A stretch of DNA of 64,000 bases from an uncultured bacterium (GTDB lineage Bacteria; Verrucomicrobiota; Verrucomicrobiia; Limisphaerales; UBA11358). The DNA lies in assembly GCA_963708305.1 (NCBI GenBank), contig CAVPSH010000003.1:319957-383956 (forward strand), written 5' to 3'. Shown here in pieces: positions 49,909 through 55,993 of the stretch. Below the pieces are notes generated by a model. That model worked only from the letters and a program-made list of their open reading frames with translations, was not told the origin of the DNA and did not search any database. The position numbers and the translations under genes were made by a program. Within the stretch, counting starts at the first letter, position 1. Every line of letters begins with the position of its first letter.

Positions 49909-51261
49909 ATGATTCTTTTCCGCAGCACCAACGGCCAGGCGCCCGCCGTCAATTTGCGCGGGGCATTTCATGCCGGACTGGCCCCGGACCGCGGGCTTTA
50001 TTTGCCCGAGAAATTTCCGCAACTGGCGCCGGACGAAATCGCGGCGTTTGCCCAATTGCCCTATCACGAAATCGCCTTTGGCGTTCTGTCAAAATTTACC
50101 GAGGGGATCATTTCCAACCGTGATTTGGCCATCCTGTGCCGCGACGCGTACCATTTCCCGATTCCGCTGGAAAAAATTCACGACCGCGTATTCCTGATGC
50201 GGCTGGACCAGGGCCCGACGGCATCGTTCAAGGATTTCGCCGCACAAATGATGGCGCGGATGTTCGGGCACTTTCTGCGCGACGACGGCCGGCAGGTGAC
50301 CATCCTCACCGCCACCAGCGGCGATACCGGCTCAGCGGTGGCGCACGCCTTTCACGGAGTACCGGGAGTGCGGGTGATCGTGTTGTTTCCCATCGCCGAA
50401 GTCAGCGAGAGCCAGCGCAAGTTGATGACCACGCTGCGCGACAACATCCGCACCGTTGCGATTGACGGGAAATTTGACGATTGCCAGGCGATGGTGAAAC
50501 GCGCCTTTGCCGATCCCGATTTGAAGCACATTCCGTTGTCTTCCGCCAATTCCATCAACATTGGCCGGCTCCTGCCGCAGAGCGTTTATTATTTTTACGC
50601 CGCTTCCCGGCTGGCAAAACCCGGCGAACCCACGGTCTTTTCCATTCCCAGCGGCAATTTTGGCGATGCCATGGGTGCCGTCGTCGCGCGGGAGATGGGT
50701 TTGCCGGTGAAAAAGTTGATTGTGCCGGTGAATGACAACGACGCCTTTCCCACATTTCTTGCGAGCGGCCATTACGACAAAGTCGTGCCCTCGCGCAACT
50801 CGCTCTCCAATGCGATGAACGTCGGCCACCCGAGCAACCTCGCCCGGCTCGTGGCGATTTACGGCGGGCAGATGGACGAGACCGGCAAAATCCACAAGCA
50901 GCCCGACCTTGCCGCGATGCGCCGTGACGTATTCTCCACTTCGGTTTCCGACGAGCGCACGCGGGCGGCGATCCGGGATTTCTGGACGAAATATCAATTG
51001 CTGCTTGAGCCGCACGGCGCAGTGGCGTGGCAGGGCTTTCTCGACTGGCTCGCCGTCGAACCGCTTGGCGACGCGCCGGCCGTGATTATCGAAACCGCAA
51101 ATCCGGCGAAATTCCCGGAAGAAGTCGAAAAAGTTGTCGGCTGGCCTCCCGACGTTCCGCCGGCGATGGCCGCCGCCATCAACCTGCCGGAGGATTTCGA
51201 CCGGATGGACGCGGATTACGGGAAATTTCGCGAGTACCTGGTGCAGCGTCACGCGGCTTGA
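49909..51261 (+). CDS. thrC: Threonine synthase
   Basis: PLP lysine motif [42 protein letters not shown]. 450 aa, intact. Confidence 0.9.
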
Positions 51262-51304
51262 TTGCCGGCGCGTTTCTGGCATCCTTTCCGTTCCAAAAAC
51301 TGCC

Positions 51305-52527
51305 ATGGCTTTGATCGTCCAAAAATACGGCGGCACCTCGGTCGGCAACACCGACCGCATCAAAAACGTCGCGGCGCGCGTGGCCAAATATCGCGCGCAA
51401 GGCGATCAGATTGTCGTGGTGGTTTCGGCCATGAGCGGCGTGACGGATGGCCTGATCAAATTGGCCAAGGACATTGCGCCGTTGCCGAGCGAACGCGAGA
51501 TGGACATGTTGCTGGCGACCGGCGAACAACAAACCATCGCGCTCACGGCGATTGCGCTGCACGCGCTTGAACGTTCCCGCCGTTTCACTCACCGGGGCGC
51601 AGGCGGGCATCGTGACCGACGGCGTCCATACCAAGGCGAAGATTCACAACATCACCCCGAAGAAAGTCCGTGACCTTTTGAAACAAGGCAACGTCGTCAT
51701 TGTCGCCGGTTTTCAGGGTGAAACCCCGGAAGGGCCAGATCACCACGCTGGGCCGCGGCGGTTCGGACTTGACCGCGATTGCGCTGGCGGCCGCGCTCAA
51801 GGCCGATCTTTGCCAGATCTACACGGACGTGGACGGCGTTTACACCGCCGACCCGCGCATCGTAAAAGATGCGAAGAAACTGGAGGAAATTTCCTATGAC
51901 GAAATGCTCGAACTGGCCAGTCTCGGCGCCAAGGTGATGCAGTCCGCTCGGTGGAATTCGCGAAAAAATTTGGACGTCGTATTTGAAGTCCGTTCCAGTT
52001 TGAATGACAACCCCGGAACCATTGTGAAAGAAGAAACCAAAAGCATGGAAGACGTCGTCGTGCGCGGCGTTTCACTCGACAAGAATCAGGCGAAGGTCAC
52101 GCTCGTCGGCGTGCCTGACAAACCCGGCGTGGCGGCGCGCATCTTCAAGGCGCTCGGCGACGCAACCGTTAACGTGGACATGATCGTCCAAAACATCAGT
52201 CATGGCAGCGGCGTGCCGGCCACCGACCTCTCATTCACCGTGGACAAGCCGGACTTGCTGAAAGCGCAAAAGGTGATTGACGGCCTGAAAAAAGAGCTCG
52301 GTTTCCGCGACGTGATTGCTACGGAAAAGATCGGCAAACTCTCCATCGTCGGCGTGGGCATGCAAAGCCATACGGGCGTGGCCGCAAAGCTGTTTGAGAC
52401 ACTGGCCAACGAAGGTGTGAACATTGACATGATTTCCACCAGCGAAATCAAAATTTCCGTGGTGATTGATCTGGCCAAGGGCGAAGCGGCGATGAAAGCC
52501 GTCCACGCGGCGTTTATCGAGAATTAA
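51305..52527 (+). pseudogene. lysC: Aspartate kinase with two +1 frameshifts (~51567, ~51733) and a short compensated out-of-frame stretch (51944-51975)
   Basis: [14 protein letters not shown]...[12 protein letters not shown] (frame a), [17 protein letters not shown] (frame b), [14 protein letters not shown]...two ACT domains (frame c). Confidence 0.9.
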
Positions 52528-52529
52528 AG

Positions 52530-52898
52530 TCAGTCGTTTTTGAAATAGCCGGCAAACGGCTTGAGGATTTCCGATTTGACCAGGGCGATGATGACGACGG
52601 TGTAAACCAACGAGACAATCACGTCCGTCAACAATTCCCGGCGCAAGTCCGGCGGCGGTTTTTCCGAAAAAATCTGCCGTGTGCCCTTGTGCAGGAGCAC
52701 AAGGCCGAGCACGTTCGTCAGCCAGTAGCCGATGATTAAACTCGCCGCGAACGCCGGCTTGTAAAACAGACTCACCAGCCAGGCGAAGGCCAGCGCGAGG
52801 GGAATGTTCACGAATGCGTCATTCCACCAGGAGAGCGGCGAGAGCAGGTAACCAATCGTCGCCAGAGCGCCGCCGGAGATTTTGCGTTTCCAAGCCAT
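52530..52898 (-). CDS. Small integral membrane protein, function unknown
   Basis: MAWKRKISGGALATIGYLLSPLSWWNDAFVNIPLALAFAWLVSLF... has 3-4 TM segments. Confidence 0.5.
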   Translation of the reverse strand: MAWKRKISGGALATIGYLLSPLSWWNDAFVNIPLALAFAWLVSLFYKPAFAASLIIGYWLTNVLGLVLLHKGTRQIFSEKPPPDLRRELLTDVIVSLVYTVVIIALVKSEILKPFAGYFKND

Positions 52899-53085
52899 AG
52901 ACACGCCAGTCTCCCGGCGACGGCGGAGAAGAAGCAAGTGCGAATTTGAAAACGTCGCCGAAATGACAAAAGCAATTCAACTGCTCGCCACGCTTTTAGA
53001 TTCCACCTTGCGTGTGAACGTGTTATGGGACGGAGAAAAGCAGCATTCTGACCGGAAGAAAAAGGATTTGACCTGCTGAACCCAA

Positions 53086-53178
53086 ATGGCTATGATTCTT
53101 GCAGTGAATCGCAATTTGAATCTGAACCTGCTGCTGAACGCGCTGCTGCTGTTGTGCCGCGCGGCGGTTGGGTTCTGA
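53086..53178 (+). CDS. Leucine-rich leader peptide of a leuA attenuator (30 codons, 10 Leu)
   Basis: [30 protein letters not shown]. Leu codons at 53098, 53116, 53122, 53128-53136 and 53143-53154. The stop lies 2 nt after the antiterminator arm. Confidence 0.6.
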
Positions 53179-53198
53179 TTCGTTCATCAATTTTATCG

Positions 53199-53235
53199 AA
53201 CCCCACTGCCAAACCGGCGGTGGGGTTTTTGTTTT
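53199..53235 (+). terminator. Intrinsic terminator (attenuator) between the leader peptide and leuA
   Basis: CCCCACTGCC (53201-10) aaacc GGCGGTGGGG (53216-25), a 10-bp stem followed by TTTTTGTTTT. Confidence 0.75.
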
Positions 53236-53273
53236 GCCAAACGGAAGCGCCGCCGCCACAACTAAAGACGAAC

Positions 53274-54933
53274 ATGCACAAAAATCCGTCGAAAGAAATA
53301 CCGTCCGTTCCCGCCGGTCAGCTTGCCCGACCGGCAGTGGCCCAACCGCGTCCTCACCCGTGCGCCGCAGCTGGTGCAGCGTGGATTTGCGCGACGGCAA
53401 CCAGGCGCTCGCCGTGCCGATGAACGTCAGCCAGAAGCTCGAACTCTTCCAGACGCTCGTGAAAATCGGCTTCAAGGAAATCGAAGTCGGCTTTCCGTCC
53501 GCGTCGAACACGGAGTTCGCGTTCAACCGCCGGCTCATCGAGGAAAACCGCGCGCCGGACGACGTGTGGCTCCAGGTGCTCGTGCAGGCGCGCGAGGATT
53601 TGATCGAGCGCACCGTGGAATCGCTCATCGGCGCGAAGAAGGCCATCATTCACCTTTACAATTCCACCTCGCCGGCGCAACGCCGCGTCGTCTTCGGCAA
53701 ATCGAAGCAGGAAATCATCGAAGTGGCCGTGCGCGGCGCGCAATGGATCAAGGACCGTTTGCCCCGGCTCAAGGGCACGGAAGTCGATGCTCCAGTATTC
53801 GCCGGAAAGTTTCAGCGCCACGGAAGTGGAATTTGCGAAGGAAATTTCCGAAGCCGTCATGGAGATCTGGCAACCGACGCCGAAACGGAAGATGATTTTG
53901 AATTTGCCGGACACGGTGGAAGTGGCGATGCCGAACGTTTATGCCGACCAAATCGAATGGATTTGCCGCAACATCAAAAATCGCGATTCGCTCATCATCA
54001 GTCTGCACACGCACAACGACCGTTGCACCGGCGTGGCGGCGACCGAATTGGGCTTGCTCGCCGGAGCGGACCGCGTCGAAGGCACGCTCTTCGGCAATGG
54101 CGAGCGAACGGGGAATTTGGACATCGTCACCGTGGCCTTGAATCTTTACCAGCACGGGATTGATCCGAAGCTGGATTTTCCGGACCTCAATTCGATTATC
54201 GAGGTCTACGAACGTTGCACGGGCATGACGGTTCCGCCGCGCCAGCCTTACGCGGGCGAACTGGTTTTCACCGCGTTCAGCGGTTCGCACCAGGACGCCA
54301 TTCGCAAGGGGCTGAATGAATGGAAAGAGGACGGACGCACGCACTGGGATGTGCCGTATCTCACGATTGACCCGGCGGACATCGGCCGTGAATACCGCGA
54401 GGTCATCCGTGTCAACAGCCAGTCCGGCAAGGGCGGTGTGGCCTATTTGCTGGAAAGCCAGTTCGGCATCGAATTGCCCAAGGACATGCAGCGCGAGTTC
54501 GGTCCGATCGCGAATGATGAAGTGGACAAGCTGGGCCGCGAAGTGAGCGCCGCCGAATTAAAACAGATGTTCTGGAAGTGAATACATCGAGCGCACGACA
54601 CCCTGGCAGCTTAAGAAATTTGAAACGGAGAGCAAAAACGGCATCGTCAAATGCCGCGCGAAATTGTTGCATGACGGGAAGATGGTGGAACTGGCCGGCC
54701 AGGGCAATGGTCCGTTGGCCGCACTCGTTCATGGTTTCAGCAAGGCCGGCGGGCCCCGTTTTGAAATCACGGCTTACAGCGAGCACGCCTTGAGTTCCGG
54801 CGAGGCGGCGGCGGCGATTGCCTACATTCAAATCAAGCAGGGTGACGGCAGAACCCGCTGGGGCGCCGGCGTGGATACGAATATTGAGCTGGCGTCCGTG
54901 CGCGCCGTCTTGAGCGCGCTAAACCGGTTGTGA
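53274..54933 (+). pseudogene. leuA: 2-isopropylmalate synthase (long LeuA form with a C-terminal regulatory domain) with four +1 frameshifts
   Basis: MHKNPSK|[25 protein letters not shown]|[13 protein letters not shown]...LYNSTS...|MLQYSPESF...[11 protein letters not shown]...FSGSHQDAI...MFWK|EYIERTTPWQL...; shifts at 53295, 53371, 53786 and 54579. Confidence 0.9.
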
Positions 54934-55000: not shown

Positions 55001-55993
55001 ATGAAATTAGGTCGTCATTTTCTTTTTGGGATTGCGGGCGTCATTTTCGCCGGCGCCAGCCTTCTGGCGGCTGACGTCAGGTCATCCAACACCACGGTGG
55101 CCACCCCGCCGGTTTATGTCCCGAACTTGTCGGGCGCGTCGGGGCCGTTGCCTGACGGGATACTGGCGTGGGACGCGACGACCAAAGAAACCAATGTCAT
55201 CGCGAATACCGGCCCGGCGCATTTCGTCTTCAATTTCACCAACGTGGCAACCCAGGTTAATCTTGGCCTGGCAACCAATATTACCAGCATCACCAACTTC
55301 GCGACGGTCACCAATGCGAGTTTTTGGGCGCGATTATTTGGAAGAAAAATTACCCAGGTTGCCCGCGTTGCCAGCAACACCAACATCGTCACCGTCACAA
55401 ATTCCATTACGCCGGCGCCAGTCACCATTTTGAGTGTGCGTCCGTCCTGCGGTTGCACCACGACAAAATTGCCGCCGTTGCCCTGGACACTCGTACCCGG
55501 CACCAACGGCCAGATCGAAGCCACGGTAAATTTATATGTTGCGACTGGCACATTGTACAAGACGTTGATGGTCTATACTGATAAAGGCTCCAAGACTTTG
55601 ATGATGAAAATCACCATTCTGCCTTTCCAGATGCCCAAAATGTCGGAAGCCGAGCGTGAAGCAAACAGGAAGCTGGCTGTGGCGGATCGGCAGTTGGTCT
55701 TTAAGGGAGAATGTGCGACGTGCCATGTCCGGCAGGGTGAAGGCAAATACGGCCAGGCGCTTTACGACGCTGATTGCGCCATTTGTCATGAAGGTGAACA
55801 TCGCGCGACCATGGTGCCGGATTTGCACGCGCTCAAAACGCCCACCAATTTCGAATTCTGGCGCATTTGGGTCGCCCATGGCAAACCCGGCTCGCTGATG
55901 CCGGCGTTTTCAGGTACTGACGGCGGTCCGTTGTCAGATATGCAAATTGATTCGCTGGCTACGTATCTTAATGAGTCGATAAAGGCTCATTAA
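55001..55993 (+). CDS. DUF1573-like domain fused to a c-type cytochrome domain (two CxxCH)
   Basis: Signal-like N-terminus. ILSVRPSCGCTTTKLP (DUF1573 hallmark). CATCH and CAICH heme-binding motifs, with a distal ...SLMPAF. Confidence 0.75.
   Translation: MKLGRHFLFGIAGVIFAGASLLAADVRSSNTTVATPPVYVPNLSGASGPLPDGILAWDATTKETNVIANTGPAHFVFNFTNVATQVNLGLATNITSITNFATVTNASFWARLFGRKITQVARVASNTNIVTVTNSITPAPVTILSVRPSCGCTTTKLPPLPWTLVPGTNGQIEATVNLYVATGTLYKTLMVYTDKGSKTLMMKITILPFQMPKMSEAEREANRKLAVADRQLVFKGECATCHVRQGEGKYGQALYDADCAICHEGEHRATMVPDLHALKTPTNFEFWRIWVAHGKPGSLMPAFSGTDGGPLSDMQIDSLATYLNESIKAH

Follow-up and report, generated by a model that had tools for sequence, protein, structure and literature searches.

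A predicted leucine attenuator upstream of leuA forms a sequence family of its own in Verrucomicrobiia and is probably translated from a leaderless GUG

The stretch of DNA analysed here (the window) comprises 64,000 nucleotides (nt) of contig CAVPSH010000003.1 (assembly GCA_963708305.1, positions 319,957 to 383,956 of the forward strand) from an uncultured bacterium of the Limisphaerales (Verrucomicrobiota). We describe a compact element that precedes leuA, the 2-isopropylmalate synthase gene of this genome. On the plus strand a promoter-like site is followed by an open reading frame (ORF) of small size that is rich in leucine (Leu) codons, a 13-pair hairpin, a T-tract and leuA (Table 1). A small membrane-protein gene without a Pfam or NCBIfam match lies upstream of the element on the minus strand (52530-52937). 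An initial annotation of this DNA had proposed an attenuator of the leu type, in which a ribosome at the leader stop codon masks the antiterminator. The joint conservation of the parts, always upstream of a 2-isopropylmalate synthase gene, supports this proposal.

Table 1. Features of the leader element and the gene downstream of it, in positions of the window
Feature	Position	Strand	Basis
A-rich tract GAAGAAAAAGGA directly 5' of the -35 hexamer	53055-53066	+	consensus AAAAAC.A before TTGAC in 75 homologs
-35 hexamer TTGACC	53068-53073	+	TTGAC at least 90% conserved; 10 of 12 matches in promoter scan
-10 hexamer TATGAT	53091-53096	+	of 62 scored homologs, 50 have TAnnnT 17 nt past the -35 and the others have it at 16 or 18 nt
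ORF of the leader peptide, 24 codons beginning with GTG and closed by TGA (53176-53178)	53104-53178	+	9 Leu; start and stop columns kept in homologs
Predicted regulatory Leu codons L5, L7, L9-L11, L14-L17 (TTG, CTG x7, TTG)	53116-53154	+	Leu columns kept in homologs
Region 1, 5' arm of the 1:2 hairpin (candidate anti-antiterminator, probable pause hairpin); Leu and asparagine codons	53118-53143	+	minimum-energy and centroid folds
Region 2, pairs with region 1 or 3; last six sense codons and stop	53159-53181	+	most conserved stretch of the element
Region 3, candidate antiterminator 3' arm (with 53163-53179) and terminator 5' arm	53195-53210	+	constrained fold; pairing in homologs
Intrinsic terminator hairpin 3:4, 13 pairs, 8 of them G-C, loop AAACC	53198-53228	+	terminator scan
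Terminator T-tract TTTTTGTTTT (T5GT4)	53226-53235	+	read from sequence
leuA, long-type 2-isopropylmalate synthase, predicted regulated gene; four single-base insertions in this window	53275-54933	+	NCBIfam and Pfam matches

Homologs were gathered from 80 loci (L001-L080) around close LeuA relatives in species-representative genomes, all of them Verrucomicrobiia, Limisphaerales or 'subdivision 3' metagenome-assembled genomes (MAGs). The element is upstream of leuA in 74 of the 80 fetched loci. Five of the six misses end before the upstream region, which brings the count to 74 of 75 loci with upstream DNA. Covariance model R1 gives a single match at each locus and no second one in the 64-kb window, whose leader scores 145 bits against the family model. 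A scan of metagenome contigs with a DNA pattern that fixes regions 2 and 3 gave 80 loci, with the element in all 80. In 66 of the 79 metagenome loci analysed leuA lies downstream, and 11 of the other 13 have less than 150 nt after the element; the 217-301 nt of downstream DNA in L114 and L133 gave no leuA match. In most loci 26-60 nt separate the element from the LeuA residue that aligns first, and the two are always on the same strand. In total the whole arrangement is conserved in approximately 165 related sequences. About 20 relatives (L002:4340-4480, L004:4329-4470, L050:4273-4466) carry a palindromic element of 140-200 bp exactly between the T-tract and the leuA start. It has terminal inverted repeats (AACCACGAATGAACACGAAT... 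and ...ATTCGTGTCCATTCGTGGTT), creates spurious ORFs such as MNTDKHG...IRVHPWFNS, is absent from the window and looks like a miniature inverted-repeat transposable element or a repetitive extragenic palindromic element.

The leader is found with two types of leuA. The three leuA fragments of the window match the NCBIfam models PRK03739 and TIGR00970 and the Pfam domains HMGL-like, IPMS_D2 and LeuA_dimer (the allosteric domain), which confirms the long type. In 14 of the more divergent metagenome loci the downstream LeuA is only about 30% identical to that of the window, and TIGR00973 identifies it as a 2-isopropylmalate synthase of the short bacterial type (707 bits; cut-off 599). A protein search with a LeuA fragment of the window had listed only relatives at least 86% identical; a query with this short-type (type-1) LeuA widened the range. 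Ten relatives of the short type, picked by similarity alone and listed at NCBI under Verrucomicrobiae, Limisphaerales or Verrucomicrobiales MAGs, gave 11 loci. Each of the 11 carries the leader directly in front of leuA (63-109 bits, E <=3e-13). Start codon, stop codon and terminator persist in the wider set, as do the Leu runs (LLL ... ALLL). The gene identified downstream is always a 2-isopropylmalate synthase gene, so that the presumed target belongs to the pathway of the amino acid that would be sensed. Because the leader precedes two leuA types that share only some 30% identity, the family is tied to the first enzyme of leucine synthesis and not to one gene lineage, which is strong evidence of a functional association. 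A replacement of leuA in situ was considered and rejected as a claim: the neighbourhoods differ among loci and fit displacement of the gene and mobility of the leader alike. In two type-1 loci (L208:1370-1503 and L210:1343-1475) the T-tract comes to within 0-25 nt of the called leuA start, where L208 reads GGGGTTTTTGCTTTATG; in such loci the terminator hairpin may also occlude the translation start of leuA.

The leader ORF carries a coding signature. As the initial annotation reported, an ATG-started ORF spans 53086-53178 with ten Leu codons, eight of them within 53122-53154. Its choice of the ATG as the start of a 30-codon leader did not survive the comparison, because that ATG is not conserved in the alignment and falls in the -10 region of the promoter. 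The conserved start is the GTG at 53104, which gives 24 codons with nine Leu. At the 9.7% Leu usage of the window's long ORFs, the chance of at least nine Leu in 24 codons is about 3e-4. The start column of the 75-sequence alignment holds GTG in 69 sequences and ATG in two, and the frame from this column is open in 74 of the 75 for 19-34 codons. Every ORF length is a multiple of three (60, 63, 66, 69, 72, 75 or 78 nt, and 105 nt in L012). Likewise, the 12 distinct gap runs within the ORF are all multiples of three, whereas gaps just past the stop are of 1-5 nt. The stop lies at one fixed position as TGA (62), TAG (8) or TAA (1). Among 38 leaders of equal length each Leu column retains Leu in 31-38, except codon 15, where Leu and Arg stand at 21:16. 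Three to four synonymous codons occur per Leu column (TTG, TTA and CTG at codon 5; CTG, TTG, CTC and CTA at codon 10). Homologous leaders contain 5-9 Leu, and the peptide sequence is conserved, including a C-terminal RAAVGF. The indels that keep the frame, the interchanging starts and stops and the synonymous Leu codons argue that the ORF is translated; this is conservation of a coding sequence, beyond that of an RNA alone. A short leader rich in codons for the end product, as classical attenuators have, is thus found in at least 74 species.

Two further observations concern the leader codons. The ORF of L012 (L012:4292-4455) carries an in-frame insertion of 33 nt inside the Leu region, and the insert is a small hairpin (CCTCCGCAGTATTGCTACGGAGG). 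Asparagine (Asn) accounts for five of the 24 leader codons in the window, alternating with Leu at 53107-53141, and these AAY codons make up the complement of region 2. Distant leaders linked to type-1 leuA do not retain them and have isoleucine codons instead (e.g. VNGIGNIRLLLSALLL). Sensing of Asn was rejected on these grounds. A structural role as the complement of region 2 is more likely for these codons.

The site TTGACC-17-TATGAT at 53068-53096, which the initial annotation had pointed out, is as described. Its hexamers are conserved while the sequence of the spacer varies freely, and this combination of a fixed 17-nt spacing and a free spacer leads us to read it as a promoter. The TTGAC of the -35 is also present in distant members linked to type-1 leuA. 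The A-rich tract in front of it may act as an UP-like element. Between the -10 hexamer and the start codon there are 6 nt in 41 and 7 nt in 19 of 62 sequences, and 6-10 nt in distant members. With the usual distance from -10 to +1, a gap of 6-7 nt would place the start of transcription on or next to the G of GUG. The alignment contains no conserved Shine-Dalgarno motif between the -10 and the start codon, and the intervening bases are unconserved. In the fold, the predicted RNA leaves its first 14 nt unpaired. The initial annotation had cautioned that use of this promoter would force translation to start at the GTG, and the conserved promoter and GTG column bear this out. Apart from the leader, strict TTGAC-N17-TAnnnT promoters and canonical intrinsic terminators are very rare in the clade (positions 1-60000 of the window; L001-L080).

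The terminator is the best supported of the RNA structures. Its core stem, CCCCACTGCC/GGCGGTGGGG at 53201-53225 followed by T5GT4, was already noted in the initial annotation, and the terminator scan extends it to 13 pairs between 53198-53210 and 53216-53228 (region 4). The homologs have at least five U in the 10 nt past the 13-pair stem (53229-53238 of the window). No other terminator-like hairpin in positions 1-60000 comes near this one in strength; the others have at most 10 pairs and are as numerous as expected from shuffles. The 13-pair hairpin cannot be the terminator of an upstream gene, because it lies on the plus strand downstream of a divergent gene. An intrinsic terminator thus stands between the leader ORF and the structural gene.

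Folding points to two further, mutually exclusive helices. The element region folds with z = -5.3 and the predicted transcript (53104-53238) with z = -4.8. The transcript forms two hairpins, the terminator and a 1:2 hairpin of the Leu codons with region 2 that the initial annotation had missed. The antiterminator pairing given there, GGCGGTTGGGTT (53163-53174) with AACCCCACTGCC (53199-53210) at 11 of 12 positions including one G-U, is correct. When the sequence is folded under alternative constraints, as suggested there, masking region 1 and leaving out region 4 makes the 2:3 antiterminator (53163-53179 with 53195-53210) the fold of lowest energy, at -20.9 kcal/mol. Over 74 homologs the mean energies are -30.5 kcal/mol for 1:2 (start to region 2), -19.8 for 2:3 and -23.3 for 3:4. 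RNAalifold prefers another register of 1:2, in which codons 12-15 pair with region 2, and the single-sequence folds use codons 5-11; both are possible. The stop codon is within region 2, and the spacer from stop to terminator is 17-21 nt in 73 of 73 sequences.

Helix statistics were obtained from an 82-sequence alignment (A4), for which the leader sequence played no part in the choice of members. The terminator helix is 99% paired, with two-sided changes at six pairs. The 1:2 helix is 85% paired, with two-sided changes at seven, and the 2:3 helix is 89% paired. Pairing falls to 25-56% when the 3' partner is slid by 1-3 columns. The one variable 2:3 pair is G-U in 35 sequences, A-U in 27 and G-C in 20, with no mismatch; in an earlier set of 75 sequences a Fisher test for this pair gave p = 0.002, uncorrected for phylogeny. 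An antiterminator that excludes the terminator by sharing region 3 with it, and a 1:2 helix that sequesters the antiterminator arm, are therefore both present at 85-89% pairing, with weak compensatory support for 2:3.

Taken together, these features suggest the following mechanism. A strong sigma-70-type promoter (-35 at 53068, -10 at 53091) would start the RNA within 1 nt of the GTG, with essentially no 5' untranslated region, and the leaderless 24-codon ORF with its nine Leu codons would be translated. When leucine is plentiful, the ribosome would reach the stop codon and cover region 2. Region 3 would then pair with region 4, and RNA polymerase would stop at the T-tract, short of leuA. If charged tRNA-Leu runs low, the ribosome would stall in the Leu codons and the 1:2 hairpin would be blocked. 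A ribosome footprint is about 28-30 nt. With L9-L11 or L14 in its A site, a stalled ribosome should occupy region 1 and leave region 2 free some 10-30 nt downstream. The free region 2 would pair with region 3 once this is made, the terminator would be blocked and leuA would be transcribed. Without translation, the 1:2 and 3:4 hairpins would both form and transcription would terminate. The positions of the stop codon in region 2 and of the Leu codons in region 1 and the top of the hairpin agree with this scheme, given a footprint of the general size. We consider it very probable that the element works in this way, as a classical ribosome-mediated transcription attenuator that ties leuA to charged tRNA-Leu.

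Several points weigh against this interpretation. The attenuator function is deduced entirely from sequence. The antiterminator is the weakest link of the structural case. Its compensatory support is thin (one two-sided pair, in one sequence, matched by 173 of 500 shuffles, with all other changes one-sided or wobble), and one internal 2:3 mismatch is conserved in all sequences. The mismatch would keep the antiterminator weaker than the terminator. Compensatory changes are expected to be scarce in 2:3, because region 3 has two pairing partners, regions 2 and 4, and region 2 is part of the coding sequence as well. Regions 2-4 are too conserved for covariation to have much power, and the metagenome set, selected on regions 2 and 3, cannot test those helices. 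In the alignment of leuA upstream regions that the initial annotation had suggested, the Leu run is conserved and the terminator has two-sided changes, but these are nearly absent from 2:3. Finally, locus L040 has no leader even though its LeuA is 91% identical. The DNA in front of leuA is of unrelated sequence there, with a long inverted repeat (L040:3900-4600), and leuA in L040 presumably escapes attenuator control.

The same attenuator might operate on a transcript that is not leaderless. The RNA would come from a promoter further upstream, translation would initiate at the GTG on an A/U-rich stretch independently of a Shine-Dalgarno sequence, and the hexamers would be kept for another reason. 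The transcription start proposed here, at or 1 nt before 53104, is predicted from promoter geometry, as is a 5' end at the start codon like that of leaderless short-ORF attenuators (in 60 of 62 sequences 6-7 nt lie between the -10 and the GTG). In E. coli, GUG serves poorly as a leaderless start, and the gap between -10 and start grows to 8-10 nt in distant members. leuA itself is without an obvious Shine-Dalgarno sequence, and the clade may generally initiate without one. A strict search for TTGAC-N17-TAnnnT over 0.9 Mb (L001-L080), with distances to the starts of long ORFs collected in a histogram, gave 79 matches. About 62 of these are the leader promoter itself; the search turned up no other leaderless genes. 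Against a longer transcript stand the fixed 17-nt spacing around a free spacer, which is a promoter signature, the 6-7 nt gap, by which +1 falls on the G of the GTG or beside it in those 60 sequences, and the conservation of the hexamers into the distant set linked to type-1 leuA. We regard the longer transcript as unlikely and a leaderless, or nearly leaderless, leader mRNA as more likely than not. In this genome alone the attenuator might instead be a relic that regulates nothing. Relative to L007, L009 and L010, leuA has extra bases at 53295, 53369, 53786 and 54579, none in a long homopolymer, and the adjacent aspartate kinase gene (51134-52527) is spread over three frames. If the four leuA frameshifts are real, the attenuator of this genome controls a dead gene, which counts against its function here. 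The leader is nevertheless intact by its score, the leuA frames between the insertions are well conserved (94-96% protein identity with relatives), and scattered single-base indels in two adjacent core biosynthetic genes look like assembly error. Since long-read MAGs are the nearest relatives and one of them (L001) has a similarly broken leuA match, the breaks in both genes are probably errors of long-read assembly rather than marks of pseudogenes, and a relic is improbable.

Two other explanations would dispense with attenuation by a ribosome altogether. The ORF could be an independent gene for a hydrophobic peptide of 23-24 residues, with leuA transcribed separately and adjacent by coincidence or for another purpose. 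The unit does possess a complete promoter and terminator, and the peptide is conserved to its C-terminus. The conserved C-terminal codons coincide exactly with region 2, however, and are explained by RNA pairing, and across the wide family only the Leu positions are conserved and the Asn positions are not. Such a gene should also not be found always directly upstream of leuA on the same strand, before two leuA types in unrelated gene neighbourhoods, and the promoter scan found no promoter-like site between the terminator and leuA from which a separate transcript could start. This explanation is highly improbable. An untranslated RNA switch, sensing a protein, a tRNA or a ligand and acting on the same terminator, would make the open frame incidental. 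The terminator and antiterminator logic would fit any sensor, and covariation alone is no proof of translation. An incidental frame would not confine its indels to multiples of three inside the ORF and not downstream, nor would stops interchange at one position, ATG with GTG at the start and Leu codons with their synonyms. T-box and riboswitch models also give no match to the leader, and we give an untranslated switch hardly any weight.

Downstream of leuA is a gene (55001-55993) whose product combines DUF1573 with a cytochrome c domain at the C-terminus (two CxxCH motifs). No terminator was found between the two genes, which may be co-transcribed. On the other side of the element, thrC (49909-51261) is intact.

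Most documented cases of attenuation by a leader peptide come from Proteobacteria, Actinobacteria and some Firmicutes. The case described here would extend the mechanism to the Planctomycetes-Verrucomicrobia-Chlamydiae (PVC) group. More tentatively, we propose that the element represents an undescribed RNA family, a leaderless, GUG-initiated, Leu-sensing attenuator across much of Verrucomicrobiia, kept on leuA across a replacement between the long (yeast/actinobacterial) and the short type. As such it might be the first case in the PVC group both of classical attenuation and of functionally important leaderless translation. It predicts that these bacteria translate leaderless mRNAs that begin with 5'-GUG. 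The presence of the same leader on two leuA types of about 30% identity shows that a regulatory RNA can outlive the gene under its control or pass from one such gene to another. A new covariance model for the annotation of soil and peat MAGs would result. The sigma-70-type promoter, the probable leaderless start and the canonical terminator would be among the few concrete regulatory elements known in these genomes. The understanding of the attenuation mechanism itself is unchanged.

The initial annotation knew of no such element in Verrucomicrobia, and a full-text literature search found none described there; the broadest survey of attenuators (Lopatovskaya et al. 2010) lies outside that search, so a prior mention is possible. 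By the account of another survey of 2010, leader-peptide systems had been known only in Proteobacteria and Actinobacteria, to which it added Firmicutes (PMC2965389). Among Rfam families the top-ranked for the window is Leu_leader (RF00512), with 19.2 bits and E = 0.24 against a gathering score of 50. In 20 relatives RF00512 scores 24.7 and 27.6 bits in two and has no match in the others, so that 3 of 21 sequences match overall. Membership was rejected on these sporadic matches of 19-28 bits. The alignment covers the CUGCUGCUG-AACGC segment and the terminator, and this CUG run with AACGC and a terminator is what any Leu attenuator could converge on. Other Rfam matches (rnk leader, NsiR1) were set aside since they cover the terminator only. 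The T-box covariance model, searched in the window and its relatives, and the riboswitch models gave no match even at E-values up to 10, and the element is not classed as a T-box.

The closest functional counterpart is the enterobacterial leu leader (leuL, RF00512). Both have an ORF with a Leu run, 1:2, 2:3 and 3:4 hairpins and an intrinsic terminator, and in both leuA is the first regulated gene. E. coli LeuL also reads ...LLLLNA..., and its leader uses rare CUA codons. The element described here differs in its GTG start, the lack of room for a Shine-Dalgarno sequence, Leu codons that are mostly the common CTG, and its occurrence in another phylum. The regulated unit is apparently leuA alone and not leuABCD as in enterobacteria.

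In Actinobacteria an upstream ORF with a Leu run also precedes the long-type leuA. This LEU element is described as a pseudoknot in which the base stem pairs Leu codons with the leuA Shine-Dalgarno box, with no obvious terminator (Seliverstov et al. 2005, PMC1262725). The verrucomicrobial element does not belong to it, since here the Leu codons fold onto region 2 and a canonical terminator with a T-tract is present. By inspection, positions 53239-53275 contain no CAGCAG-type complement to the Leu run.

Corynebacterium glutamicum leuA is of the same long LeuA type as the gene in the window. The ilvBNC, leuA and trp leader peptides of that organism resemble ours in that attenuation by a leader peptide acts upstream of genes for branched-chain amino acids. 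The C. glutamicum leuA leader has four consecutive Leu codons (PMC4046766), while here there are two Leu runs and a conserved GTG start; the phylum is another, and no sequence relationship was detected. According to the mention of Morbach 2000 in PMC4046766, the ilvB leader of C. glutamicum is translated from a leaderless transcript and so needs no ribosome-binding site. In mycobacteria, polycysteine leaderless short ORFs (LL-sORFs) are translated from mRNAs with a 5' AUG or GUG, and codon-specific stalling remodels the RNA downstream (bioRxiv 10.1101/834739; PMC4633059). These are leaderless sensory short ORFs like the one proposed here, except that the output here would be an intrinsic terminator and the signal leucine. 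Because the Corynebacterium ilvB leader and the mycobacterial short ORFs are documented, a leaderless attenuator leader of the kind predicted for Verrucomicrobiia has precedent.

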